29,601 nucleotides of DNA, from contig JAHQWW010000033.1 of NCBI GenBank assembly GCA_029856365.1, positions 1 to 29,601 on the forward strand, in the 5' to 3' direction. The number at the start of each line of letters is the position of its first letter. Within the stretch, counting starts at the first letter, position 1. This document shows, one piece after another, positions 5,479 through 23,417 of the stretch. The notes under the pieces are model-generated. The model saw only the letters and a list, made by a program, of their open reading frames with translations. It ran no database searches and was not told where the DNA came from. Source of the stretch: Candidatus Hodarchaeota archaeon. Lineage in GTDB: Archaea > Asgardarchaeota > Heimdallarchaeia > Hodarchaeales > Hodarchaeaceae. Made by a program: the position numbers and the translations under genes.

Positions 5479-6312
5479 ATGCCATCGTGGATTGATATTC
5501 TCATTTTTTATATTGTTTACTTTTTACCAAGTATTACGCTGACACTTCTTGCTCTAATAACTGGTATTCTTGTGTACTTTCTAGGGAAAAGAAAGAACCT
5601 CATTATCATGAATAACACCTTTAAAAAAACAAAGCAATGTAGTAAAGACTGGATAACAAATTTTAAATTAGCTGAAGAGAGTACAACAGGTAGAACATAC
5701 CTTCTTGAGGTGAAACCAAATCTATCCTTAAAGGACTTTCGTGTCCATTTTACAATGGTAAATAGACATCTCATTTTAAGCAAAATTGCTTCCATTCTAA
5801 GAAAACGTCGTGATTACATCCTTCTAGAAGCTGACCCAAGCGATAATGTTGTAAAACGATATCAGCTAGAAGTACTCCCAAGACGAGAAGAAAAAATGAT
5901 CAAAGCACTTTTAGATATGCTCGGAGAATTGGAACCATTAGAACTTGGAAGCTCTAAACTTGAAGAAATGTTCATATTTAGGGTTAATGATTCAGAATTA
6001 TTTCTTACAGCTTTTAAGAAAGGAAAACATATTATCAGAAATCTCTATTCCCTGAGAAATCAAATAATAAGACTTTCATATTATCCACTTGAAAGTCCTT
6101 CCATTCGAATAGTTGCAGTATTGAGCGAAAGTCTCAACCTTAAACCATTGATGGATCTATTATTCACCCTAACAGCTAATATCGCAGATCTTGGCAAAAA
6201 AGGATATTATTCAAAACAAAGAACCGTTGGGTTACGTATCCATGAAGATAAAACTGTTGAGAAAGATAAACGAAAATATAAAGGTCGAGGAAGAAATCTA
6301 GATTTATCCTAA
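5479..6312 (+). CDS. Membrane-anchored protein, CCDC47/DUF1682-like
   Basis: N-terminal hydrophobic segment followed by YFLGKRKN, later FTMVNRHLILSKIASILRKRRDYILLE, and a basic C-terminal tail. ATG 5479 is preferred over the ORF-track TTG 5452. Confidence 0.55.
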   Translation: MPSWIDILIFYIVYFLPSITLTLLALITGILVYFLGKRKNLIIMNNTFKKTKQCSKDWITNFKLAEESTTGRTYLLEVKPNLSLKDFRVHFTMVNRHLILSKIASILRKRRDYILLEADPSDNVVKRYQLEVLPRREEKMIKALLDMLGELEPLELGSSKLEEMFIFRVNDSELFLTAFKKGKHIIRNLYSLRNQIIRLSYYPLESPSIRIVAVLSESLNLKPLMDLLFTLTANIADLGKKGYYSKQRTVGLRIHEDKTVEKDKRKYKGRGRNLDLS

Positions 6313-6851
6313 GGTTTGTTTTCTACCAATTGAGCTTGAGTGCCACGAATTTTCTCTTCGATCTGATTTCGAATGTCGAACACATCAATAGATTTAGAAA
6401 AACGGTAGATTGGTAATTCTACGTACTCTCCTTCAAGATCATCTTCATATATACGAATACTAAAACCTTTTATGCCAGCAGCAGAAGTAGCTACTGATAA
6501 AGCTACAAGTGAGAAATCTTCCCATTTGTATTCAAATAAACGTTTTCCTACCTTTAATGAGAAATTATCTTTTCCTAGAGTTATCACCCTCTTAATATAA
6601 CGAGTATAGTACAGATAGGTAATCGTAAATGCTCCCACAATTAACACAATTACCGAGGGTATGTCTATAATAATCATTGGTTCACCAACAGATTGAGCTA
6701 TTGAGGATCGAATCAGAAAAAATCCAAACACTTCGATAGCAAGAATTGTTAAGAAAATTAAGATTATTGTGAAACCCCTTCTACTTTCCATAATAATTGG
6801 AAATGATTCTTCTTGAGTAGAGGTTGACTGTTGATCTCCTTTTTCAATCAT
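6309..6851 (-). CDS. Two-TM membrane protein with a C-terminal PH-like domain
   Basis: Two hydrophobic helices, then VITLGKDNFSLKVGKRLFEYKWEDFSLV, a bacterial-PH-like beta pattern with a 'W-x-D' signature. Stop overlaps the convergent gene's stop. Confidence 0.6.
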   Translation of the reverse strand: MIEKGDQQSTSTQEESFPIIMESRRGFTIILIFLTILAIEVFGFFLIRSSIAQSVGEPMIIIDIPSVIVLIVGAFTITYLYYTRYIKRVITLGKDNFSLKVGKRLFEYKWEDFSLVALSVATSAAGIKGFSIRIYEDDLEGEYVELPIYRFSKSIDVFDIRNQIEEKIRGTQAQLVENKP

Positions 6852-6864
6852 TAAAAACTCTTCC

Positions 6865-7440
6865 TCAAGACCAGAACTTTAGTCTAGACTTACCTTTTGG
6901 TAAATTTTTTGGGTGAAAGAGTTTCACACCATGTCTAGCAATAAAACTATCTGAGTTGAATATTTCAATATTTTTTAGATCAGCATAAAGTAATCCCAGT
7001 TCACGGGATGTATGACGATTAATATTATGTATAGTTTTGGTTGGTAACTCACCTTCACCAAAAAATAATAACCACATCCACTCAAAATCCATTGCTCCCA
7101 TGAGACTGGTAACATCACGTATCCAACCAACTAATACAGACCATTTTGCATTTTTAACATTTTTAAGGTGTATAGTAGCACATCCAACTCTATAAGTAGG
7201 GGAAGCCATGAATGAAAAGGCTCTAGATAAAACGAAACCTCTATGTCTCACTCCACCATAAATCAAGGAATCTATAGAGTTTTTTGAATGATTCTTCTTC
7301 TCTTTTTTGAACATCTGAGTAATGCTATAGTCTCTAATAGCGATATTAAAAGTTGCGATCCAGCGTCCCCCTTTGATCATTAATTCATGTTCTACGTAAC
7401 GAAGATATTCTTCTTTTTTAGTTAATTTTGTAGCAGACAC
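6865..7440 (-). CDS. Hypothetical protein, possibly an inactive restriction-endonuclease-like alpha/beta fold
   Basis: 191-aa ORF with alternating strand/helix pattern (IDSLIYG, YRVGCATI, EWMWLLFFG, LGLLYAD). Ends 13 bp before the next minus-strand gene starts. TATA-like GAAGAATTTAAA upstream. Confidence 0.6.
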   Translation of the reverse strand: MSATKLTKKEEYLRYVEHELMIKGGRWIATFNIAIRDYSITQMFKKEKKNHSKNSIDSLIYGGVRHRGFVLSRAFSFMASPTYRVGCATIHLKNVKNAKWSVLVGWIRDVTSLMGAMDFEWMWLLFFGEGELPTKTIHNINRHTSRELGLLYADLKNIEIFNSDSFIARHGVKLFHPKNLPKGKSRLKFWS

Positions 7441-7482
7441 AATCGTTCGTTTTTCTTTAGCTTTTTAAATTCTTCCATAATA

Positions 7483-7581
7483 AAAAAAAAGGTTGAGGTG
7501 GGTAGTTCTTAGTGAAAGTGAATTTTTATAATTTTGTTTTATCAATGATAAAAAAAAGGGGGGGGAATAGAGAAAAGGGTC
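7483..7581 (-). terminator. Pyrimidine/oligo-T tracts, probable terminator of the permease gene
   Basis: Minus strand directly after the stop reads as a C run followed by a long T run. A second tract (CCACCTCAACC then a T run) lies near 7483-7501. Confidence 0.5.
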
Positions 7582-9372
7582 CTATTCTGGTGGGATAGAA
7601 GCATAGATTGTTGAGAAGTCGACACCTTTTTTGGTATAGTAGCTTTTCATGTAGAAATAGATTACAATACCAATAATGACGAGTACCAAGACTGTATAGA
7701 ATCCCCAATTGAAGGTATCCATAATACCCTCTATACTACTCGTGTCGGTAGGAATGAATCCATCAACATTCGGTATAATTGGCATCGCCCCAATAAGCGG
7801 TAATGCCTCCATACCTTCCACTGGTATAAGGATGTTAAATTCTCCTAGGATGACTAGATCCAAGTAGATGTTCGCAATTAATGCGATTACACCGATGACG
7901 ACTACTGCTTCCATACCTCCTATCTTGGGACGCCAAGCAGTTCTTTCGTACACCTCTTTGAGTTTCCTGGGAAGCAATATTGCTGCTAAACAAGCCATAG
8001 TGAAGAATATACCATCTAACAGGTCTGTTGCGGTTATACCGTTTCCGAGAATCTGATCTAAGACAGGGATATTTATTGCCCCTTCTTTCGTGCCAAATAC
8101 ACCACTTTCAGCAAAAGCACCAAAAATAGCAACTATCGCACAAAAGAGAATTGCCACTGTGGGTGAGTGCCATCGCTCATCAACCTTAGCAAATGCCTCA
8201 GGAAGTGCTCTGTCAAAGGACATTGCAAAGAGAATTCGTGATGAGGTGGTGATGAATGGTGGGAGGTCATTAGCTAACCAAAGGACTGCCGCAGTTGCAA
8301 ACAGTAAAGGTACAATGCCACCAAAAGCCATATCAAGTCCATCAGCTGCAATAACAGCTATAAAAGGCATCCAACCAAAGCCAGAAATTGCAGGATCCCC
8401 AGTTGTTTCTCCATAATTCAAGAATCCGTTTGCTTGGAAGAACGTCCAACCACTAGCGTGATCGCCAACAGAAGCGCAAATACTTAGTAGTGTACTGATA
8501 GACATATAGACACCCAAGATGATGAACCCTGCTGCAAGATGAGAAATTGGTAGTGATCTGTTTGCTTCTTTAACTTCTCCAGCTGCGAATGAAATCGCTG
8601 CATAGCCGATCCATGACCAATAGGCTCCTAAAATTGCCGTATTTACTGCTGAAAAGTAATCTGGTGCCCTTGCATCCTCGATTCCTTGAGCTACTGCTTC
8701 TGTAATCCATTCATTGGGAGTATTTCCTGTGACTGCCAAAACACCATCTTCAACGGCTCCAGAGTTCAAAGCACCTAGGAGAAGAGATAGATAGATTCCT
8801 ACTGTGATAATTGCAGGAATCCAAAACATGATGTGTAGGAATTTGCCAGTCATTGATGTCCCAAAGTATGCAATAGCTGCGAAAGCGAATATAAATATAA
8901 TACCAATAACACACATCGCAAGCGGTGTGCCTATGGCACTCCAATCAATATCTGGTAGCGCAACTGGCATGAATAGAACAGTAAAATCTACGACAGCAAC
9001 AGCAATCAATCCATATGAGATAGCAATCCCTAGAAATTCAGCCCATGCTGACACAAAACCAACACCAGGACTAATTGTTCTTGAGATGTAAACATATCCA
9101 CCACCTGCTCGTGGCATAGCGGTAGCCATAACTGCGAAAACGAAGACAGTGGCAATCGCTGCTATTCCAGTTAGTAGAAATGCAACTACCAATGGATCTA
9201 TGTAGAATGGATTGTCTTCTGGGTGAAGAGGGGCCCAACCTGTGGTTTGGAAAACTCTTTTCTGCCAGCCACCACCAATAACGTTGCTGAGGATAAAGAT
9301 GGTAGCGGTTATAACCCCTATTTCTCTAACGAGTCCGGTTGCGTCACGGACATAAGTTTTTGATTCACTCAT
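7582..9372 (-). CDS. APC superfamily amino acid/polyamine permease
   Basis: YVRDATGLVRE N-terminus, MPRAGGGYVYISR, AGEVKEA, SSRILFAMSFDRALP, about 12 TM segments, C-terminal IYASIPPE. AGGTGA RBS precedes ATG 9372 (the ORF track starts at GTG 9381). Confidence 0.93.
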   Translation of the reverse strand: MSESKTYVRDATGLVREIGVITATIFILSNVIGGGWQKRVFQTTGWAPLHPEDNPFYIDPLVVAFLLTGIAAIATVFVFAVMATAMPRAGGGYVYISRTISPGVGFVSAWAEFLGIAISYGLIAVAVVDFTVLFMPVALPDIDWSAIGTPLAMCVIGIIFIFAFAAIAYFGTSMTGKFLHIMFWIPAIITVGIYLSLLLGALNSGAVEDGVLAVTGNTPNEWITEAVAQGIEDARAPDYFSAVNTAILGAYWSWIGYAAISFAAGEVKEANRSLPISHLAAGFIILGVYMSISTLLSICASVGDHASGWTFFQANGFLNYGETTGDPAISGFGWMPFIAVIAADGLDMAFGGIVPLLFATAAVLWLANDLPPFITTSSRILFAMSFDRALPEAFAKVDERWHSPTVAILFCAIVAIFGAFAESGVFGTKEGAINIPVLDQILGNGITATDLLDGIFFTMACLAAILLPRKLKEVYERTAWRPKIGGMEAVVVIGVIALIANIYLDLVILGEFNILIPVEGMEALPLIGAMPIIPNVDGFIPTDTSSIEGIMDTFNWGFYTVLVLVIIGIVIYFYMKSYYTKKGVDFSTIYASIPPE

Positions 9373-9576
9373 TTGTGTCACCTTTTAAATCTAAAAAGAT
9401 TTTTTGAGGTTTATTGAGATAGTAGTAGATTTCTCATTGATTATGTCTTTGAGAAAAAATATTTCCTTTTTTCTACTGCGAACCACAAAGTCTAATTAAG
9501 CGTAATGCTTACATTGGTTAGAACTTCTCTAGCCAATTAAACATTCAGCACAGAAATTCACGCGGTTACTTTTTGA

Positions 9577-9590
9577 TTATAAAACTTTCG
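9577..9590 (-). promoter_or_regulatory. Archaeal BRE-TATA promoter of the permease
   Basis: Minus strand CGAAAG-TTTTATAA is close to the BRE+TATA consensus and implies a TSS near 9550. Confidence 0.6.
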
Positions 9591-10016
9591 CACAAATTTG
9601 ATTTATCTGACACTATCAATTAAGAGTAAGAACTTATTCTAAATATAAAATTAAACATGATATTATTCATTCTTCAATATAAGAGTATAGACCATTATCT
9701 CTCTCTCCAGTATTAGAACTACATATATTCAGTTCTTAGATAATCAATTTATTATAAAAGGCATCTAGTGCGGATCCCTAACGAAAAAAATTTTTTGTGT
9801 AAATAAGATTACATTAACCTATACACAGATTGTATTAGGACTTTTCTTTAATAGATAAAGAAAATATGCGATTTAAGAATAATTTTTAACAGGTAATTGA
9901 TTAAATCTTCGAAGTTATAATTAATGTAAGAAAAAAGCTTTTACTTTAATTTACATTTTCATAATAAAATCAAAAGTTAAACAAAAATGCATTAGAAATT
10001 CGAGTTCCTTGTTATT

Positions 10017-10030
10017 CGAAAAATTAATAA
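10017..10030 (+). promoter_or_regulatory. Candidate BRE-TATA promoter of the metallophosphoesterase
   Basis: CGAAAAATTAATAA about 80-95 nt upstream of the CDS. Confidence 0.4.
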
Positions 10031-10111
10031 TATAATATCTAATAGCCAAATGTGTAGCCTAACAAAAGAACAAATCCCCTGATACGATAAAACAGATCAA
10101 TTAAAAAGCTG

Positions 10112-11131
10112 GTGAAAATACTGGTAAGATTATTTTTTTGCACTGATATTCATGGTTCAGAGGCCGTTTGGAGAAAGTTCATTAATTCAGCTAAATATCT
10201 AAAAGCTGATACTTTGATTATGGGTGGAGACATTACAGGTAAAAGAATAGTACCGATAATTCAACAACCTGATGGTACTTGGAAAGGTAGCATATATGGA
10301 GTATCCGAACAGAATGTCATAATGAAAACCGAAGAAGAGATCTTAGATTTTGAAAAACGCGCAAGGTTTGCTGGCTGCTACCCACACCGCTTAACAGCAG
10401 AAGAGGACGAAATATTATCATCCATAGAGTCTGTTACAGAAGATGGTAAGATGATCAAAGGCGGACCTCTCGATAAGTTGTTTGACCAAGTAGAAGCTGA
10501 AGGATTACAACTCTGGATTGATATGATAGATGATATAATGGATGATGGAACGAAACGTGTACCAGAAGGAACAAAAATTATCATCTGCCCTGGAAACGAT
10601 GACAAATTTGCCATTGATGATATTATAATTAAAGATCCCAGAGTCATTTTCGGTGAAGGAGCAAAAGTGGATCTTGACGATCACCACGAAATGATAAGCT
10701 ATGGTTGGACGAACCCCACACCATGGAATACCTACAGAGAGACTGATGAAGAAACCATCGAAAGAAAGATCGAAGAGTTAGTTCCACTTATTAATGATAT
10801 TAAAAACGCAGTTTTTTGTTTTCACTGTCCTCCTTATGACTGCATTATTGATGAGGCACCACTTCTAAAACCAGATCTAACATATGTTGGTTACAGTGGT
10901 GGAGAACCTATACGTGGACCCACTGGAAGTAAAGCAATTAGGAAAGCAATTGAAAAATATCAACCAATGCTTGGCCTCCATGGTCATATTCACGAATCCG
11001 CTGGGTATACAAAGATCGGTAGAACATATGTTCTCAATCCTGGTAGCGAATATACTGAAGCTATTCTGAAAGGATTCCTGATAGAACTTAAGAAAGGAAA
11101 AATAACAAAAATGCAAAGAGTAGAATCCTGA
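10112..11131 (+). CDS. Calcineurin-like metallophosphoesterase (Icc-related)
   Basis: All five metal-binding motifs are present: TDIHG, GGDITG, PGNDD, FHCPPY, LHGHIHES, followed by LNPGS. Confidence 0.92.
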   Translation: MKILVRLFFCTDIHGSEAVWRKFINSAKYLKADTLIMGGDITGKRIVPIIQQPDGTWKGSIYGVSEQNVIMKTEEEILDFEKRARFAGCYPHRLTAEEDEILSSIESVTEDGKMIKGGPLDKLFDQVEAEGLQLWIDMIDDIMDDGTKRVPEGTKIIICPGNDDKFAIDDIIIKDPRVIFGEGAKVDLDDHHEMISYGWTNPTPWNTYRETDEETIERKIEELVPLINDIKNAVFCFHCPPYDCIIDEAPLLKPDLTYVGYSGGEPIRGPTGSKAIRKAIEKYQPMLGLHGHIHESAGYTKIGRTYVLNPGSEYTEAILKGFLIELKKGKITKMQRVES

Positions 11132-11291
11132 CTTCAAAATTCATTAAACTTTTACCAATGCAAGTAAGAATACTAATATAATATATTTTGTGACAGATAA
11201 AGAAATTTAAATCCTCATTTTCATAAAAAAAGCTTTTAAATAGTTGAACGTTGAAGCCTTGAATGTTAAAAAAAAACATGAAGGATAAACA

Positions 11292-12152
11292 ATGGAAATT
11301 TCAGCAAAAAATCACAATGATGAACTTATGAAAGTCGGATATCAAATCTTACAAGAATGTCTTGATGAAAATATTCCTTGTTTTCTATGGGGTGGTGGAG
11401 CAATCTACCATATGCTTGGTGGGAAGCTTGATTATAGAAAAATGAGTGATCTCGAGTTTTTCATTCCAAAAAAAGTTGATAATCAAATGAAGAAAATTCT
11501 CAAGCAAATGGGATTTTATGCTAATAGACCTTTTAATATGATGCAAAATATGTCGAAAACACCTAGAAGAGAGTTTTACCGTCCTGATCGTGAACTCACT
11601 GAGATAGAAGTGGAAGAAATAGAACACGGTAGAAAGGGTAATATTCAAGACGTTGAATTTCAGAAAGTTGAAATATTTGTTGTCGGTATTAAAATGTGCT
11701 GGACTTTCAAATTCAAAGAACTACCATCAAGTTATACAAACACCTTAATATGCCCCCCAGGGTTTCAGTTAGCTCTTAAAGCAAACGCAATCCATTCTGA
11801 TGACTTTGATCTCAAAGATATTCAAGATATTTCAAGTGTTGTTAGTTCGAGCTGTTGTGGAGAAGTCACAACGAGAGATACAATTTTTACAGAGCCACAC
11901 TTGGATGAAAATATCAGATACTCCGTTGGAACAGAGATATTTAAACATTTATCGAAAAGAAAGTTTGAATTTCCCTCTACCATTATCAGAAATTTTACTG
12001 AATGTCTAAACTATTCAGGGTTATCTGAAGATGGTAAAACGACATTGTTAGAATTGATTGACTTCTTAAAACCTTTCGAGGAAAGTGATAAAAGCGGAAG
12101 TCTTCTATCAAAAGCTAGGAAGGAAAGACCTAGACGGGTTGACGCTAGATAA
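11292..12152 (+). CDS. Pol-beta-superfamily nucleotidyltransferase-like protein (paralog A)
   Basis: FLWGGGAI...RKMSDLEFF (hGG...DxE), third acidic strand KVEIF, and C-terminal K...KDIQD motif as in AbiEii/DUF2204-like NTases. Confidence 0.7.
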   Translation: MEISAKNHNDELMKVGYQILQECLDENIPCFLWGGGAIYHMLGGKLDYRKMSDLEFFIPKKVDNQMKKILKQMGFYANRPFNMMQNMSKTPRREFYRPDRELTEIEVEEIEHGRKGNIQDVEFQKVEIFVVGIKMCWTFKFKELPSSYTNTLICPPGFQLALKANAIHSDDFDLKDIQDISSVVSSSCCGEVTTRDTIFTEPHLDENIRYSVGTEIFKHLSKRKFEFPSTIIRNFTECLNYSGLSEDGKTTLLELIDFLKPFEESDKSGSLLSKARKERPRRVDAR

Positions 12153-12417
12153 ACATCAAACTCAAGTTAGATATGGGTATTCTTTTTCCGTTAAACATTG
12201 AAAAGTCAATAATCCAAACGTGAGAGTAACTAAAGCATTGTTTCAAGTATTCTAATATTGTTTTAAACAGTTAATTTAACCTGCTGACTGATCTCAACGT
12301 GTCAACAAAAACAGTGGAATATTTTTTTGACTTTAATTCTTGTTGTGTAATAACAGAACGTATTAAAGGTACAGTAATCCTCGTTAACAGAGGTGTTCTT
12401 GTTCTGAAAGAGAGCTG

Positions 12418-13341
12418 TTAATCTTTAGGTTTCTCAAGAAGGTGTTTACCACTAAAGATCCCGAATTCACCAACAGTTGCAGTTGTTTCGACTGGCCTGT
12501 ACCATCGTTTTGATGTTCCAATTTTAGCTCTAGCACGCCAGCTACGATTCTTGGGAACATTTTCAAAGTATTCAACCATTTCGTCAATTTTCGTTCTGAT
12601 AGTATTTTGTTGTTCCTCTGAAAGTTCTTTAAATTCTGGTAATACATTTCTGATATTGGTTAAGTTTGTGTTCACAGTGTGATAGAAACCCCAGGCATAC
12701 CCTCCTTTTCGAAAATACTTTTCAGCGATATGTTTGATATTTATTGTCTCTGGACTATCATCATAACCAATCTCGTGACCCAGTAATAACATTATTGTGT
12801 CAGCAACATCTTTATAGTTCATATATACAATCTGAGTTTTCCCTAAAAAGAGCTCAGCTAAAGGAAGAGTTGGAGAATCCAATTTTAGTCTGTTGAGATC
12901 TAATTCAATATCATGATTAAATTTCATTGCACCGTAAAAACAGTCCACAAACCACCAATTTTTGGGGTGGATGTAGATTTTACGTTGACTAGCAGCTGTA
13001 GATAATGTTGTCGCTCTTTTGAAGTAACCAAACTTTTCCATGAATTTGTCCATTTTACCACGATGTTTCATGGCTATTGCTCCATCAATATCTGTAATTT
13101 CACTGACATTCTCTCCCAAACGCTTCATTCGCATGTATAAATCTTCTAAATTATGTTGTTGACAATGGAGACGTATTGCTAAACCACCAACCAATCGAAA
13201 TTGAACACCAAATTCTTCAGCTTGTGATACCATTTTTGTAGCTTCATCAATAAAAACTTTTAGAGGAATAATTCCAGCCCATTCTTCGGGCATATCTACA
13301 GGTACGCCCTCTTTTTCTTGTAAAATTATTGTAACCTCCAT
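12418..13341 (-). CDS. Pol-beta-superfamily nucleotidyltransferase-like protein (paralog B)
   Basis: RLVGGLAI...EITDIDGA (hGG...DxD), FVDCF, LFLGKTQI...NYKDVAD, and basic tail KNRSWRARAKIGTSKRWY. Confidence 0.75.
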   Translation of the reverse strand: MEVTIILQEKEGVPVDMPEEWAGIIPLKVFIDEATKMVSQAEEFGVQFRLVGGLAIRLHCQQHNLEDLYMRMKRLGENVSEITDIDGAIAMKHRGKMDKFMEKFGYFKRATTLSTAASQRKIYIHPKNWWFVDCFYGAMKFNHDIELDLNRLKLDSPTLPLAELFLGKTQIVYMNYKDVADTIMLLLGHEIGYDDSPETINIKHIAEKYFRKGGYAWGFYHTVNTNLTNIRNVLPEFKELSEEQQNTIRTKIDEMVEYFENVPKNRSWRARAKIGTSKRWYRPVETTATVGEFGIFSGKHLLEKPKD

Positions 13342-13548: not shown

Positions 13549-15324
13549 TCATGATGATTCTCCTTTGATAAGCCTTTGTTCATTGGGAGTAATTTTATAA
13601 AGAGAAAAAGCAATTTCATCAATATAATTTTGTAGTTGTTGAAGTTCCTTATAATTACGGACAATTGAAGCAAGATAATTTGAAGCTTGCTGTTCTCCTA
13701 GTGTGGACTCTTGGAATATTTCATTGATATCTTTTTCTTTTATCAATTGTTTGTAAAACCATCTGAAACTATGAAATTCTGTTTTTCTTGGATATAAAGG
13801 GTAAGTTCTCTTATCCCGTATCAATTGAGTTATTCTCGTCTTTAAATTCTCCCCTCCTTTCTGATACTTAGAATAAAATTCTCCCAAGGTATAAAATTTA
13901 TCAATATCTGTTTGTGATTTCATCTCTTTCAATATTTTCTCATATTGATTAAACTGCAAAAGTTCTGATAGTCTTTTACGATACTTAATGCTCTTTGAAT
14001 CAGAAATATGTGGAATCCTTATCAGATTAATGTAAGCTCTATCAAAATCCTTGCTAGTGACAAACTCTTTTGTATAGACAGCATGACACAGCCACCATTC
14101 AATAAATGATGATTTCAACAAACCAGCTATAGCAGTTAAAGATAGAACTTCTTGTGGATAATTAGGAATGATGTTAATCACAGTCTCATGTGTTAAAACA
14201 GCTCCTTTTTGATCTACCCATGTCTTCACATCTAGAGAATAAGTTGGTTTTGTTTGGTAAGAAATTATTCGCTGAGCAATGATTTTAGGTATTTGTTGCC
14301 TCATGATTCTCTGTTTCGGAGTATTTTCTTTTAAAAAACCACGTGGTGGTAGTAAAAAACCAGAAGCAATATTAGCTTTTTCTATCAGGGGAATGGTTCC
14401 ATTTTTTTCACGAAATTTACTACTTAATCCACGAAATGCATTTACATTTAAGAATTCAAACTCATTGCTATAAAGACGCCGAATGATTTCTAACTCAGAA
14501 TTATTAACTCCTACCAAAAGATTATCTATGATTAATGCATCAGAATTGAAAATAAAACTTCTTTGCTTGAATTTTTTTTCTATAGGATTCCAAATACCTG
14601 TTTGATACTTGTGATACTTGATATCAGGAAGAATTTTCTTTAAAATCAGTACAATTTGCTCTTGCAATTGTCCAGAAAACTGATTACCAAGGTCTAAAGC
14701 TTCAATTAGACAATAATTGGTTAGGAGAAGTTTTCTAAACTTTCTCCATCTTTTGGAATAAATAATTGGTTTTGGTAATAGATAACAGAGGATACCACCT
14801 GATTTAAGAAGTTTAAGCGATTTTAAAGTGAAAAAAATGGAACTTTCAGGATAGATATGAAGATTTTGACCAAAAAGACAATTTTCTCTAATTTTCTTCC
14901 ACTCAGCACGTGAATAACGTGCATTATGAGGTGGGTTTCCAATAATAACATCAAACTCTTTTGTTGGTATGTCTGAAGGAAAATCTAAAAAAAAATTCCC
15001 AATCTTTAGTACAATATCGTAAGAAGATTCAATTACTAGAGGAAATAACTCTTTTTCTGCTATTTTAATTACAGAAGAATCGATATCTAACCCATAAAGT
15101 TTTACGGAAGGAAATAATGGAGAAATCAATGGAATTAAAGTGGAAAAAAAAACACCTTTTCCTATTGCTGGGTCTAATACTGTTATTATTTTTGATCGAT
15201 GATCAATAGGAAAATAATCTACTACGCGCTTTAACACGGCTTTTACTATTGGTTTAGGGGTGAAGAATTGCCCTTTGTCCTTTTTTATTTGGTTATAATT
15301 GACCATTCGGATTCTTGTCCGCAT
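13549..15324 (-). CDS. N6-adenine methyltransferase (TaqI-like, NPPH variant) with a C-terminal target-recognition region
   Basis: KGQFFTP (motif X), LDPAIGKGVF (motif I), YGLDID, FDVIIGNPPH (motif IV). Start overlaps the upstream stop (TAATG). Confidence 0.88.
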   Translation of the reverse strand: MRTRIRMVNYNQIKKDKGQFFTPKPIVKAVLKRVVDYFPIDHRSKIITVLDPAIGKGVFFSTLIPLISPLFPSVKLYGLDIDSSVIKIAEKELFPLVIESSYDIVLKIGNFFLDFPSDIPTKEFDVIIGNPPHNARYSRAEWKKIRENCLFGQNLHIYPESSIFFTLKSLKLLKSGGILCYLLPKPIIYSKRWRKFRKLLLTNYCLIEALDLGNQFSGQLQEQIVLILKKILPDIKYHKYQTGIWNPIEKKFKQRSFIFNSDALIIDNLLVGVNNSELEIIRRLYSNEFEFLNVNAFRGLSSKFREKNGTIPLIEKANIASGFLLPPRGFLKENTPKQRIMRQQIPKIIAQRIISYQTKPTYSLDVKTWVDQKGAVLTHETVINIIPNYPQEVLSLTAIAGLLKSSFIEWWLCHAVYTKEFVTSKDFDRAYINLIRIPHISDSKSIKYRKRLSELLQFNQYEKILKEMKSQTDIDKFYTLGEFYSKYQKGGENLKTRITQLIRDKRTYPLYPRKTEFHSFRWFYKQLIKEKDINEIFQESTLGEQQASNYLASIVRNYKELQQLQNYIDEIAFSLYKITPNEQRLIKGESS

Positions 15325-17300
15325 TAATCATATTCTAAGACATTATTTTCTTCTAAATACTTTTGAATAGTATAAGCAGCATATGTTTTTCCGCTAAGGA
15401 CGTTTCCACTCATCACAACAAAGCGATGCTTGTTTTGATGAATTTTTTTTACAATTTCATGAACCAAGGTGGGAAATTCAGGTTGGCGTGTAGAGATTTG
15501 AATTAACTTACACTCATTAGGAGTAAGTAAGGCTCTTGGATAGCGTTGGATTAATTCCTGATAACGTCTAAAAATAGTTAAATCAGCGTCACTCTTCTTT
15601 ATAGACGGTTCTTCATGGTTACGTGATTGCATGTTAAGTTTTACTTCAGTTTCTGTGGCATTAGCATGAATAAATAATGGGTGATACTTTTTAAATCTAT
15701 TACCTAATGATTCACGATGAGTAGGATGAGAAGGCGTGTTGAAATTCGTTCCATCAAAAATAACAATGGAAACACTGTCTTTTCGAAGAAGGCAGAGAAC
15801 AAGCCACTTGGCTAATAGATATGTATGGTTATTTTCCCACGGTAAATATTCAGGAGAACCTGCTCGATATAATCTTCTAATATGATCGGTTGAAATGACA
15901 CGAACCCGCCGAGTAATATGTGTTGTACATTGTGATACTATTCTATTAAGATTTTCAAAAATAGTAAAGATTCCACGCTTATGATTGATTTGGGGATTTA
16001 CCTCTACTTGTTCACGAATAATTTGTAGACATAAGCCAATAAACTCTCTTTGCGAAGCATATTTTTTATTTAGTTGAAAGTATTGGATGATATCCTCACC
16101 ATCAACCGCGAGATCTTTCAATTCTATTGCTGGTTGGATTTTTGCTCTTTGGAGAATATCTTTTCTAAGCTCATCAGTCAATTCTTTTTCATTACGTAAA
16201 GCCTGCTCTTTTGCAGCATAGAACATCAAATAATCTGTTAAATATTCAAATCTAACATCATATTGAAATTTTCTTATTGAGTAATCTTTTAATTCTTCTT
16301 TTTCTTCAATAGAATATGGAAGACGAAATAGATGTATTTTTAAGATATGAGATATGTCTGTTATTTGCTTATTAGAAAATTTCATCCTCTTAAGGAGTTC
16401 TTGAATATAAGGTTCTTTGAAAGGAGGAAAAACCTTCATTGATCTTGTTGGTATAGCTGTTACTTGGTGAAATAATGACGCGAAGCGTAATCTGAGTGAA
16501 GAATCCTTTGGAAGTTCTGAGATTATACATAAGGTCAATTCTATTCTGTTTAAATCGATCCCAGATAGTTTTTTTGAGAATTCCTTGTCATTAAATTCTA
16601 GTACAAGCTGATATAACAGACCACTTTCTTCCAATAATAGAATAGCTTTCTGAAAAAAGGTTCCTTGCATTAATTTTTGAAATTCTGTGTGTATTCGTTC
16701 CTTAGCCACCTTAGAAAAAATATCAAAATGATAAGGAACCGCTGCTAGGGTTTTACAATCAATATTAAACCCTAATTGAGCCACAAATCTAAAAATTCGA
16801 ATTAATCGTAATCCATCTTCTTGTAAGCGTTCATGTGGATCACCAACCATTCTAATGACTTTATTTTTAATATCATTGATACCATCAAAAGGATCAGAAA
16901 GCAAATTACTAATAGGATCATATGCTATCGCATTTATTGTCAAATCACGTCTGGATAAATCTTCTACTAAGTTGTCAACAAAGTGAATATCTGAAGGTCT
17001 TCGACCGTCAATATAGTCTTTTTCCACACGAAAAGTTGTTATCTCAATGGATAAATTATTATATAGAACAGTAACTGTTCCATGTTTAATTCCTGTTGGG
17101 ATAATACGAAATTTCTTCTCAAAAACCTTTATAACCTCAGGAGGTTTAGCATCTGTTGCAATATCCCAATCTTGGGGATCTAATCCTTCTAGAATTGTGT
17201 CTCGAATGGATCCACCTACAATAAAAGCTTGAAATCCATAGTTTGTTAATAATTGACAAACTTCTATAACTTCAATTGGAAAACGATCCTTTACCAACAT
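15324..17300 (-). CDS. cca: Class II CCA-adding tRNA nucleotidyltransferase fused to a C-terminal circularly permuted P-loop kinase
   Basis: VGGSIRD...DWDIAT, HGTV, TTFRVE..Y.DGRRP flexible loop, EDLSRRDLTINA, EDGLRLIRIFRF, AKERI. HD is degenerate (LFHQ). C-terminal ISTDHIR, IFDGTN, SDAD and a terminal SGNVLSGKT. Confidence 0.9.
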   Translation of the reverse strand: MLVKDRFPIEVIEVCQLLTNYGFQAFIVGGSIRDTILEGLDPQDWDIATDAKPPEVIKVFEKKFRIIPTGIKHGTVTVLYNNLSIEITTFRVEKDYIDGRRPSDIHFVDNLVEDLSRRDLTINAIAYDPISNLLSDPFDGINDIKNKVIRMVGDPHERLQEDGLRLIRIFRFVAQLGFNIDCKTLAAVPYHFDIFSKVAKERIHTEFQKLMQGTFFQKAILLLEESGLLYQLVLEFNDKEFSKKLSGIDLNRIELTLCIISELPKDSSLRLRFASLFHQVTAIPTRSMKVFPPFKEPYIQELLKRMKFSNKQITDISHILKIHLFRLPYSIEEKEELKDYSIRKFQYDVRFEYLTDYLMFYAAKEQALRNEKELTDELRKDILQRAKIQPAIELKDLAVDGEDIIQYFQLNKKYASQREFIGLCLQIIREQVEVNPQINHKRGIFTIFENLNRIVSQCTTHITRRVRVISTDHIRRLYRAGSPEYLPWENNHTYLLAKWLVLCLLRKDSVSIVIFDGTNFNTPSHPTHRESLGNRFKKYHPLFIHANATETEVKLNMQSRNHEEPSIKKSDADLTIFRRYQELIQRYPRALLTPNECKLIQISTRQPEFPTLVHEIVKKIHQNKHRFVVMSGNVLSGKTYAAYTIQKYLEENNVLEYD

Positions 17301-17453: not shown

Positions 17454-20054
17454 ATGTTCCGATTATATTCTAGTTTGAAACCTTTTTATGATAGGTTTCT
17501 TAAGAGGGGCCAGTCTTATGGACTACCTTCTTACGAAATCCATGAAATGGCCCTAAATCTTTTTATTAAATTCCTAGGGGTAATTATTTTAGCACCATGG
17601 GAAAATTGGAGCATTAAAAATCCGAATTCACTCACAGGTACTCGTAAAATTAGAATGTTGATTCATGAAATTCTATTTCAATTAGATGTTCAACGGTCTC
17701 AACTGTTCACTGATAGAATACCACCCATCCTTGATGAAATACTCAAACTATCACCTCAAGAGGCCCAATTTAAGGATTCATTATCATCTGAAGAATGGGA
17801 TGCACTTGTAGAGATGCTTCTCGCACAGCAATGGACAATAGCTGAAAATTTCGATAGCATCTCAGAGGAAGAAAAACAATTTTCTCCTGAATTTCTTTCT
17901 TATTTTTATGAAAATATTCTAAATGATTTTGAAAATTTCTTTCGTTTAACTCCCAAAATTTCAAAGAGAAAACATAAGGGGGTGTTTTATACTCCTTGGC
18001 GTATTATCCGCGAGATTACTAATAAATGTCTCGATTACCATGAGTCAAAAAATTCTCACCTGTTCAAGGACAAGGAAAGAAATGTAAGAATCCTTGATCC
18101 AAGCTGCGGAACGGGCTCATTTCTTCTTTATAGTGCTGATAGCCTTTATCAACGTTATAAAAGGAACCAAAATCTAAATTCTCTCCCTCACGAAATTATT
18201 GAGCGTTGCATTTATGGGATAGACCTTTCTCCAAGCAGTATAACTGTAGCTAAAATTAGATTATTATTTTGGATCCTGAATCTGAGTCCTAATGTTATGG
18301 ATTCACTTCCCTCCTGGCTTTTTAGAAATATTTGTGTTGGAAACAGTCTATTTGGGCTTTGTAAAGAGAGAATTCAATATCCTCTAGATTACTCCGCAGC
18401 TCTTTCGCGGATCAACATGTATTTAAAATCAGATACTGAGAATAATTCAGGAAAATTAACAGGAGTAAGTGAAAACTGGATTATAATAAGTCTTCGGGTT
18501 AAGGAAGAAAAAACTCAGCCATTGTTTTCAAGCTCTCATCGAAGAGAGATTTGTAAAGCTGAAAAAGAACTTTCATCGCTTGTAAATATTTTTTATCAGA
18601 ATTGGTTAAAAAACCGTCTACATAATTTTCCACGTCCTGTTCCCCTAAAGAAAAGAGATCTAAACACAATTCTTCCCTTTCATTGGGGGGTCGCATTTCC
18701 TGAAGTTATTCTCCAAGGTGGATTTGATCTAATAATAGGAAATCCTCCTTATGGAAGGTCAATCCTTTCAAAATCGGAAAAATCTTTGTTGAAATTAGTT
18801 TACAAATCGTGTTCAGGTCAAAATCCCAAAAAGTACAGCTTAAATGCTGCTAGCGCTTTTATTGAAAGATCTATCACTCTTCTGAGACAGAATGGAACAT
18901 TAGGTTTAATTGTCCCGTTTTCTATTCTGAGAGTTGAAGAATTCGAAACTCTGCGTGAATTCATGTTAGAAAGAACAATGATCTGGAGAATTAATGATGA
19001 ATCAGCCGCTTTTACTGATGTTACTCTAGAAATGTGTTCTATCTTCTTATCTAAGAAAATTAAATCTGATTATGAAGTTTCCATCAATCCTCGTCCTAAA
19101 ATTAAAGCAGAACCTAGTGTTCATATTAGTGTTTTTAAAAAGTACAACCGCTTCATGATTTATTATAATAATTTATGGGATAAAGCTACTAGTCAAGGAT
19201 TGGTCTTAAATGGTGTTGTAAGCGGTGATTATGGAATAGATCATAGAATTTTAAAAAAAGATTTAAGCTCTGAATTCACTTCAAAATATCCTATTTGTTA
19301 TTTACATTCTGGACGAAGTGTGGCAAAATTTGCATTAAATCCACAATATTTCCAATGGTCAAAACCTCATCCAACTAATAAGCGTTTCACAACTTATTTT
19401 CGGGAGCCTCGTCTTGTGAACACTGCCATTGGTAATCGATTTAAGGTCGCTTATAAACCAGAAAAGATTATACCTGGTACCAATGTTTCCATATTAGAGA
19501 TTGGAAACTCCTATCACTACTTTCCTATGCTAATCCTATTAAATTCTGACCTTATAAATTATCTTTTAAAGAGATATATTCTTAATTTCAGTCATTTAAC
19601 CGTCTATCTTCACAAATATTATACAAAACTAATTCCAATAAAGTACCCCCATGAATTTGAAGAAGAATTCAAAACTCTTGCTAGTTATCTTATTTTTCTT
19701 AATCAAGCTCATCTCTGTGGGAAATTGCTTATTGATAAAAGAAATGAGTATCTACTTAACTTGGCGAACTATCTAGTTTTTGACCTTTATTTCCCAGAAA
19801 TTTTAGGAATCTCCTCAAACTTAGCGGTCAATGTGGGAAAATACTTGAAGCCCATTGAAATTGAGTCTTTTCTTGATCTAATTCTCTTTCAAGAATCTGA
19901 AACTGATCCAGCAATAATATCTCGGATCATTACTTCAAATTGGAAAATCGTTCGCCACGTTACTAATCGGTTGAGAGAGGATGAGGAAATAAGGCAGTAT
20001 AAGAAGACCATTTTTAATCATAAAATTGTGAAATGTATTCGTAAAGAACTTTAA
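17454..20054 (+). CDS. Large Eco57I/type IIG-like N6-adenine DNA methyltransferase without a recognisable nuclease domain
   Basis: KGVFYTP, ILDPSCGTGSFL, YGIDL, GNSL, FHWGVAFPEV...GGFDLIIGNPPYG, FIERSI, and a TaqI_C-like C-terminus (LLNSDLINY). Confidence 0.9.
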   Translation: MFRLYSSLKPFYDRFLKRGQSYGLPSYEIHEMALNLFIKFLGVIILAPWENWSIKNPNSLTGTRKIRMLIHEILFQLDVQRSQLFTDRIPPILDEILKLSPQEAQFKDSLSSEEWDALVEMLLAQQWTIAENFDSISEEEKQFSPEFLSYFYENILNDFENFFRLTPKISKRKHKGVFYTPWRIIREITNKCLDYHESKNSHLFKDKERNVRILDPSCGTGSFLLYSADSLYQRYKRNQNLNSLPHEIIERCIYGIDLSPSSITVAKIRLLFWILNLSPNVMDSLPSWLFRNICVGNSLFGLCKERIQYPLDYSAALSRINMYLKSDTENNSGKLTGVSENWIIISLRVKEEKTQPLFSSSHRREICKAEKELSSLVNIFYQNWLKNRLHNFPRPVPLKKRDLNTILPFHWGVAFPEVILQGGFDLIIGNPPYGRSILSKSEKSLLKLVYKSCSGQNPKKYSLNAASAFIERSITLLRQNGTLGLIVPFSILRVEEFETLREFMLERTMIWRINDESAAFTDVTLEMCSIFLSKKIKSDYEVSINPRPKIKAEPSVHISVFKKYNRFMIYYNNLWDKATSQGLVLNGVVSGDYGIDHRILKKDLSSEFTSKYPICYLHSGRSVAKFALNPQYFQWSKPHPTNKRFTTYFREPRLVNTAIGNRFKVAYKPEKIIPGTNVSILEIGNSYHYFPMLILLNSDLINYLLKRYILNFSHLTVYLHKYYTKLIPIKYPHEFEEEFKTLASYLIFLNQAHLCGKLLIDKRNEYLLNLANYLVFDLYFPEILGISSNLAVNVGKYLKPIEIESFLDLILFQESETDPAIISRIITSNWKIVRHVTNRLREDEEIRQYKKTIFNHKIVKCIRKEL

Positions 20055-20289: not shown

Positions 20290-21051
20290 CTAGTAGAAAC
20301 CGTCAATAAAAGAACGTACATTTTTACCAAGAACATTATGATTATATCCACCTTCTAAAACAGCAAACCTTCTGCCTTCACATTTATCTTTTGAGAACTT
20401 TTTAATGATTTTACCGATGGTATGATAATCTCCAGTTGTTAATAATCCACCCCAATCATCTTTGTGCCTATCAAAGCCAGCTGATACAGCAATTAGATCA
20501 ACATTTACTGTATTATCGCAAAAATCCTTCAGATTTTGGATAAATTGGGTTCTAGTACCCCCTCTCACATGATAATAGACTACTTCAGGTGAAGCAGAGA
20601 AAGTATTACTGGTACCATCCCCAAAATGCATATCAAAATCTATTATTGCAGCTTTGTTAATTTTCTTGTCGTAGAGAAGTTTTTTAACTCCAATCGCAAT
20701 ATTATTAAAATAGCAAAATCCCCAAAATCCTTCAGGGCTCGCGTGATGCCCTGGGGGTCGTATAAGAGCAAACATAGCTTCACGATACTTACATGTATAT
20801 TCACTTGCGAGAAGCGCTCCTCCAGCAGCAAGTAATGCCATAGGATAGACTTGTCCTCGAGACAACTTTACACGTGAAAGATGAGTTTCAGTATGAACTA
20901 GTAAAATCTCTCTATCTTTCGATGGTTTGGGATTTATAAATTTACAATCTTGCAATTCTTTAATAATAGCTTCCATACGACCTGCATCAGCTGCAGGATC
21001 GGATGTATAGACTTTACAATAATCCTCATGAAATACAATTTGTTTTTTCAT
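20290..21051 (-). CDS. Zn-dependent histone deacetylase family protein (compact)
   Basis: RPPGHHA, GFCYFNN, DFDMHFGDGT, SAGFD and LEGGY. Catalytic and Zn-binding residues appear intact. Confidence 0.93.
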   Translation of the reverse strand: MKKQIVFHEDYCKVYTSDPAADAGRMEAIIKELQDCKFINPKPSKDREILLVHTETHLSRVKLSRGQVYPMALLAAGGALLASEYTCKYREAMFALIRPPGHHASPEGFWGFCYFNNIAIGVKKLLYDKKINKAAIIDFDMHFGDGTSNTFSASPEVVYYHVRGGTRTQFIQNLKDFCDNTVNVDLIAVSAGFDRHKDDWGGLLTTGDYHTIGKIIKKFSKDKCEGRRFAVLEGGYNHNVLGKNVRSFIDGFY

Positions 21052-21056
21052 TGATA

Positions 21057-23417
21057 TTATCTCTTTTCTTTTGCTAATCTCCAGTTGATCTCAAATTTAA
21101 GTATTTCTCGGATTCTAAAAATATCATTTGGAGTCAAACCTAGACATTCTATAAGTATTAATTTATTAAGCTTCTCTTGAATTTTTGAATATTCTGAATT
21201 TAAACTATCGACATTACTGAGAGAATCTATTTTTAAGCTACCAAGCATATTGACAAGAGTTTGGAAGCGTTTGTTTGTTCCTTTAGGAATTTTTCGTGGA
21301 TCAAGTACAAGTAGATTTTGACATTCTTGAAGAGAAAGTTTTAATGAACCAAGACCGAGAGTTCGTGTACCCTGTATCTCCCGAAGTAATATCCCTAAAG
21401 TTGAATTGAAGAAACCAAGAAGGAAAAAAACCCAGTCTCGATTATTTGCCCAAAAACCGATCCATTGCTTATCAATGTGGAGGTTATCACGATTGTATGC
21501 TACAAAAGATCGTTTATAAGTCATATTCGGGAATAATATATCTGGTTGAATTAATGGTACCTGATACCAATTATCTATTGTTTTATTCTTGAAATAAGGT
21601 CGTTTTAATATAATATTTTGAATACTATAGACATAGTCACGAAGCTTGCTGGAACTGCGTTCTGATAATTTTTCAGGGATATATAGAAAATGTTTCATAT
21701 TTTCCTTGTTAGGGGAGAAAATTGTTTGCCATTCTTTCGGGGATTTCGTCATAAGATATATGTTTTCCTTAGGAATATCATAATTATTAATTGTTTCTTT
21801 ATCGAGATAAAAAAAACGATTTGCTCCTGTCGTTGACCCCATCTCTAATTTCCCCACTTCTTTCAATAAACAAAAGTGATCCTTCTTTTTAATAAGTAAA
21901 TTTAGGAGAAATGGAGACATTGTTAAATAATCAAACCTGATTATAGGAAATGATTTTCTAGAATTAATTAACAGAGGGGTCACATCTGATACTTGAATAA
22001 ATCTAAAAAGATCCTTTTCTACTGCTTTAATCTCCAATTTCCAGTCTTGATTATCAAGTACAATGATTTCTAAATCATTTATGTCTAGAATTGAACTTTC
22101 AATTTGTAATAAAGATTTAACTGGGGCATTCCAAACAATAAAGTTCATGGTTTTTGGCTTAGTATGATCTTTGACTTTATGACCTAATATAATATGGGTA
22201 CGAATCTCTGCACTCTTCCAAACTTCTAATGGTAATTCTATGATTAGATCTAAATTGAAATAAGATGATAAAATTCGTTTGAGAGGTGTTGCATAACGAG
22301 AAGAAAACCACGCTCTTGATAGTACAAATGAAATAACACCTCTGTTGCTTAGATGGGTTATCGCTTTTAACCAAAAATAAATATATAAATCTGCTTTTTT
22401 ATCCCATTTGAATGATATTTTTGGAAAAAATGACTTGAGATCTTGATGAAATTGAGATTTACCTTTTAGTCCCTTAATAGAAGTAGTGCTGAGCCAATGG
22501 TGTCTGATATAAGGAGGATTTCCAATAATAATATCAAATTTTAAAAAAGAGGAGCTTCTCTCTGAAATGAAATTTTTTTTGTATATTTGAAGCTCTTTAT
22601 CAACAAAAATCGATATTTCTTTTTCTGAATACGTGGTAAATTGAAAATATTGTTGTGTAAGTATGATTTTAGCAAGATTGATATTATCGGAGTCGATGTC
22701 ATATCCATAAAGACGCGAAAAAATTCCCCGTGTTATTTTTAATTTTTCTCCTGTTGATATATTCTTATATGTTGGATTGTTCATAATAAGCAAAATTAAA
22801 AGTTGAGACATTTCTGCAAGAAAAATTCCTGTACCACAGCTTGGATCTAAGATCTTGATGGATGTTAGAATATGAGCTATTTGGTGACAATCCTTCATTC
22901 GAAGATCCAAAGGATACTTACTTTGAAATACAATTTGATAAAGTGTCTTATCATCTATATCCAAGCTGATTCTATCACGAAGAAAGAAGAATAAGGAATA
23001 ATAGCATATTAATTTAATTTGATTTCTGGGAGTGAAAAATACTCCAGAAATCTTTCGTTTTTTCGGTGTACCCAACGATTCATGAAAATTGGACAAAGTA
23101 TAGAGCTTAACAGGGTTATTTTCGATGTCGATTTGTTCAAGGATGTGCCACCACCAATCTTCTTTTAATAAATAATCTCTCATCAATGAATTCGTTTTAA
23201 ACTGAAAAAAGTTTTTTAGCCATCTCATCTCCCAAGAATCAGCTTTGTGACACAATTGATTCACAAATTCCTTTTTAGTTGACAATAACATTTGATTCAA
23301 ATATGGAAATAAAAAGAAAAGACTAATGATCAATCTGAAAAATCTTTTCATTTGTGGAGACTTTTGAGAACGTTCTTCTATTTGTGTACAGCAATCAATC
23401 CACCTAATTCTTTTCAT
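21057..23417 (-). CDS. Eco57I-like N6-adenine DNA methyltransferase
   Basis: SGVFFTP, ILDPSCGTGIFL, YGYDID, FDIIIGNPPYIR, ADLYIYF, TGANRFFYL, FFNST, GLGSL. Confidence 0.9.
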   Translation of the reverse strand: MKRIRWIDCCTQIEERSQKSPQMKRFFRLIISLFFLFPYLNQMLLSTKKEFVNQLCHKADSWEMRWLKNFFQFKTNSLMRDYLLKEDWWWHILEQIDIENNPVKLYTLSNFHESLGTPKKRKISGVFFTPRNQIKLICYYSLFFFLRDRISLDIDDKTLYQIVFQSKYPLDLRMKDCHQIAHILTSIKILDPSCGTGIFLAEMSQLLILLIMNNPTYKNISTGEKLKITRGIFSRLYGYDIDSDNINLAKIILTQQYFQFTTYSEKEISIFVDKELQIYKKNFISERSSSFLKFDIIIGNPPYIRHHWLSTTSIKGLKGKSQFHQDLKSFFPKISFKWDKKADLYIYFWLKAITHLSNRGVISFVLSRAWFSSRYATPLKRILSSYFNLDLIIELPLEVWKSAEIRTHIILGHKVKDHTKPKTMNFIVWNAPVKSLLQIESSILDINDLEIIVLDNQDWKLEIKAVEKDLFRFIQVSDVTPLLINSRKSFPIIRFDYLTMSPFLLNLLIKKKDHFCLLKEVGKLEMGSTTGANRFFYLDKETINNYDIPKENIYLMTKSPKEWQTIFSPNKENMKHFLYIPEKLSERSSSKLRDYVYSIQNIILKRPYFKNKTIDNWYQVPLIQPDILFPNMTYKRSFVAYNRDNLHIDKQWIGFWANNRDWVFFLLGFFNSTLGILLREIQGTRTLGLGSLKLSLQECQNLLVLDPRKIPKGTNKRFQTLVNMLGSLKIDSLSNVDSLNSEYSKIQEKLNKLILIECLGLTPNDIFRIREILKFEINWRLAKEKR

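Follow-up and report, generated by a model that had tools for sequence, protein, structure and literature searches.

A predicted circularly permuted P-loop kinase fused to a class II CCA-adding enzyme in Hodarchaeales archaea

A 29,601-nucleotide stretch of DNA from a Candidatus Hodarchaeota archaeon (assembly GCA_029856365.1, contig JAHQWW010000033.1, positions 1 to 29,601 of the forward strand; the whole stretch is called the window below) contains a stop-free open reading frame (ORF) of 658 amino acids. Judging from motifs and structural models, its product is a complete bacterial-type class II CCA-adding enzyme whose HD motif is dead, followed by a P-loop kinase domain that ends with strand 1, Walker A and helix 1 instead of starting with them. 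This C-terminal domain is almost certainly a naturally circularly permuted kinase of the DxTN or AAA_33 group, which includes PSTK, Kti12 and Pnk. The permuted kinase on the CCA enzyme is real, conserved and apparently undescribed: the literature searched, which included few subscription journals, contained neither a permuted kinase of the AAA_33/DxTN class nor a CCA-kinase fusion, in line with the preliminary description of this DNA, which knew of no account of such an architecture.

A profile of 25 canonical AAA_33 kinases matched the native domain in two swapped pieces, profile positions 44-155 followed by 13-42. When the last 35 amino acids were placed in front, a single colinear match (18-155) was obtained, and the median best-domain score of 37 sequences rose from 45.7 to 54.6 bits. 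The canonical set had been gathered with the native-order profile, so the match of the core is not independent, whereas the position of the Walker A piece is. A cut-point scan agreed with permutation, and a weak match to PFKFB3 (E 0.017) was also in swapped order (profile 161-200 corresponding to 5-44, and 51-102 to 94-143). The elements of the core follow each other as strand 2 (D472xxR475), a helix (Y485, E489, Y494), strand 3 with DGTN, strand 4, the lid N556xxxR560, SDA and strand 5, and the last helix of the core is the linker into the moved strand 1. In native order no Pfam domain, AAA_33 included, exceeded the cut-off over the last 195 amino acids; AAA_33 matched 6 of 26 homologues (best E 9.3e-6). 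The motifs listed in the preliminary description were all found in the ORF and in the order given there. Its coordinates for the moved piece encompass the Walker A octapeptide, and the entire moved strand-loop-helix is longer (Table 1). The likeness to PNK and gluconate kinase proposed there held for the group as a whole; the closest sequences are members of the AAA_33 "predicted kinase" subfamily with SDA, not Pnk or gluconate kinase themselves.

Structural models led to the same arrangement. The kinase domain was modelled with a predicted local distance difference test (pLDDT) of 84 and a predicted template-modelling score (pTM) of 0.84, with strand 1 in the middle of the sheet between strands 3 and 4. 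When residues 460-622 and 623-654 were folded as two chains, strand 627-631 was placed between 512-515 and 542-544, which is the canonical strand-1 slot. The two-chain model scored 0.86 (best control 0.02), contacts agreed between runs to at least 96%, and the pLDDT of the partner was at least 85. Of 80 solved complexes, 58 attained the mark used for this score, as did 2 of 110 mismatched pairs; since halves of one domain may pass such a test through likeness to solved kinases, the result speaks for the fit of the fold, not for activity. In the models the old C-terminal helix leads directly into strand 1, so that the normal five-stranded kinase fold is shown rebuilt, with the new chain ends predicted between helix 1 and strand 2. 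Foldseek searches of the PDB with the kinase model returned no kinase, because a search that depends on sequence order fails on a permuted fold. With VIA the best match was PSTK (3a4l residues 32-171; Z 9.1, root-mean-square deviation (rmsd) 2.7, 131 residues aligned), followed by Kti12, a Chloroflexus kinase and polynucleotide kinases. These proteins aligned from their own residue 24-33 onward to model residues 9-170, only the first element being absent. The Z-scores of RNA and small-molecule kinases were tied (9.1-7.9), 6PF2K, chloramphenicol and gluconate kinases lying within approximately 1-2 Z of PSTK.

Both parts of the kinase are strongly conserved. Each of 25 full-length homologues has a single Walker A motif, located 20-40 amino acids from the C-terminal end. 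G632, N633, V634, L635, G637 and K638 are invariant across 26 sequences at 45-82% identity; D472, R475, T518, N519, R560 and K638 are invariant among the fusion homologues, position 639 being Thr or Ser. The mean pairwise identity of the moved segment is 60%, compared with 46% for the CCA body. The ratio of nonsynonymous to synonymous polymorphism (pN/pS) was 0.19-0.44 across kinase core and moved segment alike, and on these sequence comparisons both are under purifying selection. The lid reads NxxxR in 14/14 fusion proteins; the first lid Arg is present in 69/69 canonical relatives, and the distal Arg is retained. Strand position, the re-permuted match and conservation thus all agreed with the circular permutation of a PNK/AAA_33-type kinase that had originally been proposed from the motif order.

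The full-length AlphaFold2 model of the fusion had a mean pLDDT of 88.5 and a pTM of 0.81. Residues 4-459 superimposed on residues 1-404 of the Bacillus CCA enzyme 1miv (Z 31.8, rmsd 2.9, 390 aligned), and the head-neck-body-tail fold was present. Motifs A-D (DxD, RRD and the EDxxR template) were found, EDxxR in every long paralog. Residues 202-387 structurally match HD-fold proteins; H278 and Q279 of the degenerate HD motif were invariant in 25 homologues.

Table 1. Coordinates of the fusion gene, its parts and associated genes (window positions unless another contig is given)
Feature	Position	Strand	Remarks
Class II CCA-adding enzyme + circularly permuted P-loop kinase gene (predicted)	15324..17300	-	658 amino acids, stop-free ORF
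Complete CCA enzyme, residues 1-459, motifs A-E	15924..17300	-	PF01743, E 5e-37
Flexible loop of CCA part	16995-17030	-	motif position
EDxxR of CCA part	16806-16820	-	motif position
ERxxxE of CCA part	16683-16700	-	motif position
Degenerate HD motif (His-Gln)	16464..16469	-	upstream metal His also gone
Kinase core, residues 464-622	15435..15911	-	hhalign to canonical AAA_33 kinase P0033: probability 96.4, E 1.2e-9
STDHIR	15876-15893	-	kinase core motif
DGTN	15744-15755	-	strand 3 motif
Lid NxxxR	15621-15635	-	kinase core motif
SDA	15585-15593	-	kinase core motif
Strand 5	15489-15509	-	kinase core
Moved segment, residues 623-651 (strand 1, Walker A, helix 1)	15348..15434	-	positions 13-42 of canonical kinase profile
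Walker A GNVLSGKT, residues 632-639 (K638, T639)	15384-15407	-	within moved segment
N6-adenine methyltransferase-like, 591 amino acids, NPPH/NPPY	13549..15324	-	abuts fusion gene downstream; constant neighbour
N6-adenine methyltransferase-like, 866 amino acids, NPPY, TaqI_C-like domain	17454..20054	+	divergent upstream; constant neighbour
Short class II paralogs	L054-L070 (e.g. L055:1610-2851); source genome contig C174	- (L055)	

Of 21 other genomes of the same genus (Hodarchaeales-type), 16 had the C-terminal domain; it was not found in any of 39 genomes belonging to other families of this order and class. Full-length matches were confined to one genus among 399 genomes of the phylum, and the titles of matching proteins and contigs carried Hodarchaeota, Hodarchaeales and related Asgard labels. 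Because the 16 other genomes with the same order were assembled independently, an assembly artefact is excluded. Every full-length Hodarchaeales copy of the kinase was fused to the CCA enzyme, across 30-82% identity.

Two class II genes were seen in each of sixteen genomes of the genus, the source genome among them; in most cases these are a long fusion and a short paralog (373-414 amino acids). A class I CCA enzyme was found in just 2 of 21. The tRNA genes found do not encode CCA. The Bacillus-type flexible loop and ERxxxE were present in 18/18 distinct long paralogs and in 0/17 short ones, which in all 17 copies keep EDxxR and lack the YxDGRRP loop consensus. A full flexible loop and ERxxxE (not sRxxxE) mark CCA-adding as opposed to CC-adding enzymes (PMC2910056). 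Since the long paralogs carry these features and the short ones do not, the fusion looks like the main CCA enzyme, whereas by its motifs the short paralog may be A-adding or an otherwise re-purposed nucleotidyltransferase. A split into CC-adding and A-adding paralogs was considered and rejected, as the long paralog resembles a full CCA enzyme. Hodarchaeales class II CCA enzymes with A and B paralogs have been described, and one Hodarchaeum CCA2, which may be either paralog, adds the full CCA (bioRxiv 10.64898/2026.05.29.728689); the C-termini were trimmed from the alignments of that study, and its main text mentions no kinase, P-loop, fusion or permutation. Some gene sets were unusual: G018 has two fusion copies, G014 a class I and both class II genes, G003 and G006 the short paralog only, and G005 class I only. 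These may be incomplete or mixed bins.

Exhaustive profile searching yielded three unrelated proteins that were colinear in the permuted order. Two are stand-alone kinases: P0089 (209 amino acids), encoded between a 224-amino-acid RecA-family gene and a Fic-domain gene, and P0093 (211 amino acids, L019:1593-2228), encoded on a 2.4-kb contig. The third, P0086 (1535 amino acids, L020:1826-6433), joins a permuted AAA_33 kinase to two PNKP-type HAD phosphatase domains and three MIB_HERC2 matches; in Pfam terms AAA_33 positions 29-132 precede KTI12 positions 4-70. It also contains repeated acidic "LELLG" linkers, and near it lie a SUI1 gene and genes whose products match Mind-bomb SH3 weakly. P0093 and P0086 passed the AAA_33 cut-off. 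In the P-loop, Leu was found in 17/17 permuted sequences and in 0/69 canonical relatives, which have Gly; Asn replaced the first lid Arg in 16/17 permuted sequences. Nine of ten permuted rows grouped in the tree at 89/95 (not starred, long branches) and P0086 was unplaced, the long branches making the tree unreliable for P0089, P0093 and P0086. The simplest reading of these sequences is that the permuted family had a single origin and was then imported into the CCA enzyme, although the common Leu and Asn could be convergent.

The source genome also encodes a canonical-order AAA_33 paralog of the same subfamily (C96:17854-18399). Derivation of the fusion kinase from it was unsupported, since the tree placed this paralog apart from the permuted clade, with other Asgard canonical copies. 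A canonical-order kinase of this subfamily is conserved in another Heimdallarchaeia family (L039-L051), and in two canonical-order proteins outside the fusion group, P0070 and P0073, the Walker A starts with G-N-V as in the fusion. Viral contigs, metagenome contigs and annotated phages contained no permuted kinase in searches that reach close relatives only. A 259-amino-acid phage AAA/adenylate-kinase cluster of the ESM Atlas aligned to model residues 9-203, moved segment included (template-modelling score 0.63); it is possibly a tandem or a further permuted kinase.

The two methyltransferase genes of Table 1 flanked the fusion in 9/9 long loci, including one in which the kinase domain is only 30% identical, and they accompany it genome by genome: in the five fusion-free genomes of the genus neither was detected with these queries. 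The flanking methyltransferases are 35-81% identical across the genus, which is unusually stable for restriction-modification-like genes, and the downstream one frequently has NPPH in place of NPPY. An APC permease, a metallophosphoesterase and two convergent nucleotidyltransferase-fold genes (window 6309-13341) adjoin the cassette in 5/9 loci, all of one subclade. In some genomes a third methyltransferase-like gene lies near the cassette, in the window at 20290-23417 (786 amino acids), beside a histone-deacetylase-family gene; elsewhere such a gene (541 amino acids, NPPF) was found at L092:5170-6795 and L093:5226-6851. There was no ligase gene among the neighbours of the fusion, and a promoter scan gave matches at chance level only. 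Thg1 was not found in the source genome.

In Pnk the Asp after strand 2 has been proposed as general base, and by analogy it points to a hydroxyl group rather than a nucleoside monophosphate (NMP) as acceptor of the fusion kinase. In PSTK the mutants K17, S18, D41 and R120 fail in vivo and R116A still partly works (PMC2275090). By motif position the equivalent of R116 is the Arg replaced in the fusion lid, and K638, T/S639, D472 and R560 are kept. Because the fusion keeps the Lys and Thr of Walker A, D472, DxT and the distal lid Arg, Asn in place of the adenine-stacking lid Arg being the sole change, the domain is probably an active hydroxyl kinase dependent on nucleoside triphosphate (NTP), with a remodelled donor pocket. 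A role as PSTK was rejected: the C-terminal tRNA(Sec)-binding domain is missing and SepSecS and SelD were found neither in the genus nor in the source genome, a search of 22 genomes giving only weak partial pyridoxal phosphate-enzyme matches for SepSecS and selD remaining below the cut-off.

As a tentative best explanation overall, the sequence and model evidence suggests an active permuted kinase on the CCA enzyme that may phosphorylate RNA 5'-OH ends. The kinase would have reached the CCA enzyme in permuted form from a small family with stand-alone members, the CCA body would bring tRNA-like RNA to it, an RNA hydroxyl, most likely the 5'-OH, would be phosphorylated, and one polypeptide could in this way restore both ends of damaged or immature tRNA-like substrates. 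An RNA end may be the substrate, an assignment offered with some reserve; it is favoured because all full-length Hodarchaeales copies of the kinase are attached to a tRNA enzyme, and because the domain has DxTN motifs and tRNA or RNA enzymes among its best structural matches. End healing gains support from P0086, in which a permuted kinase is joined to PNKP-type phosphatase domains. Several observations weigh against it. The HD phosphatase, which could have healed 3' ends, is dead, and no ATP-dependent RNA ligase exceeded the cut-off in the 84%-complete source genome, where weak matches of approximately 572 amino acids resemble DNA ligase. RtcB is present in this genome, and it joins 5'-OH ends without need of a kinase. 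In CCA-tRNA complexes the tail domain, which the kinase follows, holds the tRNA elbow, far from the 5' end. The neighbouring genes encode methyltransferases, not RNA-repair enzymes; the closest sequences are stand-alone "predicted kinases" without characterisation; RNA and small-molecule kinases tied in structural comparison; and the net positive charge, which is not above that of canonical relatives, was uninformative on RNA binding.

An alternative is a small-molecule hydroxyl kinase acting on a nucleoside, nucleotide-sugar or other metabolite, which would have kept the substrate of its stand-alone AAA_33 relatives and been fused for convenience or to couple CCA addition to nucleotide supply. 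DxxR, Y485, E489, Y494 and SDA on the acceptor side are common to stand-alone canonical kinases, P0089 and P0093 are themselves stand-alone, and small-molecule kinases score close to PSTK. We consider this rather unlikely, since the fusion was retained in all full-length copies despite their divergence and the genome already has a canonical family member; the general-base Asp also speaks against a role as NMP kinase in the recycling of CMP or AMP. A lower probability still was given to a Kti12-like switch, a tRNA-stimulated NTPase or nucleotide sensor that would have a regulatory role in CCA addition or towards a partner, perhaps the flanking methyltransferases, and yield no phosphorylated product. 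It would be consistent with PSTK and Kti12 as the top two structural matches, with the activation of PSTK ATPase by tRNA (PMC2275090), with the remodelled donor pocket and with the constant methyltransferase neighbours; however, the C-terminal tRNA-binding domain of PSTK and Kti12 is absent, the chain ending after helix 1, and the putative acceptor pocket is strongly conserved, as in a transferase.

The Leu in place of the canonical Walker A Gly, the loss of the first lid Arg and the decay of the neighbouring HD domain could also indicate a catalytically dead structural appendage, but this is very unlikely for a domain whose moved segment exceeds the CCA body in conservation and in which K638, D472, R475, T518 and R560 are invariant. 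Absence of permutation, either through an assembly artefact or because a truncated kinase is followed by the N-terminal remnant of another P-loop gene, was largely refuted and is hardly credible. The chain does stop shortly past helix 1, and Cmk-EngA-type fusions can mimic the order (ESM Atlas rows 3 and 9). Against this, 16 other genomes and three unrelated proteins have the same order and end point, each chain has a single Walker A, the moved segment occupies the strand-1 slot of the core in the two-chain model, and it is under purifying selection. A composite picture is possible, though somewhat less likely than not: circularly permuted DxTN kinases would form a family not described before, and its Hodarchaeales member, part of the main CCA enzyme and inherited in a fixed cassette with two adenine methyltransferases, would either mature or repair both tRNA ends (3' CCA synthesis and 5'-OH phosphorylation) or couple CCA addition to an NTP-sensing switch.

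An essential tRNA enzyme carries the kinase, and the lineage concerned is often placed nearest to the eukaryotes. Because permutation hides the domain from Pfam and Foldseek, further permuted kinases may sit unannotated. A kinase assay is directly feasible, as Hodarchaeales CCA enzymes have already been expressed in E. coli, and the fusion could supply the first substrate for the large uncharacterised AAA_33 kinase subfamily.

Compared with known systems, the fusion resembles the DxTN kinases PSTK (3a4l), Kti12 (6qp0), T4 Pnk (1ly1) and bacterial Pnk (4gp6) in strands 2-5 and the lid (Z 7.9-9.1, rmsd 2.7-3.9), and in its Walker A, DxxR and DxTN motifs and distal lid Arg. It differs from them in the C-terminal position of strand 1, P-loop and helix 1, in the P-loop Leu and in Asn as the first lid residue, and it is without the C-terminal domain of PSTK and Kti12. 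With the AAA_33 (PF13671) "predicted kinase" subfamily (P0033 and the C96 copy) it has approximately 30% identity and the D, R, Y, E, Y, DxT and SDA positions in common; that subfamily has PxY..E..Y and SDA but, unlike the fusion, canonical order, a GxPGxGK Walker A, an RxxxR lid and a stand-alone form. The CCA part has all the catalytic motifs, the full flexible loop, ERxxxE and the head-to-tail fold of class II enzymes such as 1miv, whereas the 195-amino-acid kinase is extra relative to both the Bacillus stearothermophilus enzyme and Hodarchaeales CCA2. In Runella HD-Pnk and the T4-type Pnk-phosphatase (PMC6097658, PMC7824862) a kinase of the same group is likewise coupled to a domain that processes nucleic-acid ends, and the fusion kinase, too, follows an HD-fold region; the fusion differs in its inactive HD, in having a polymerase as partner, in the permutation of its kinase and in the lack of a linked ligase gene. 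Among P-loop domains, circular permutation in nature is well known for GTPases, and YlqF, YjeQ and Lsg1, which act on translation RNAs and keep activity with the motif order G4-G1-G2-G3 (PMC1262696), provide a precedent; there the P-loop has moved to the middle, whereas in the fusion kinase it lies at the extreme C-terminus.

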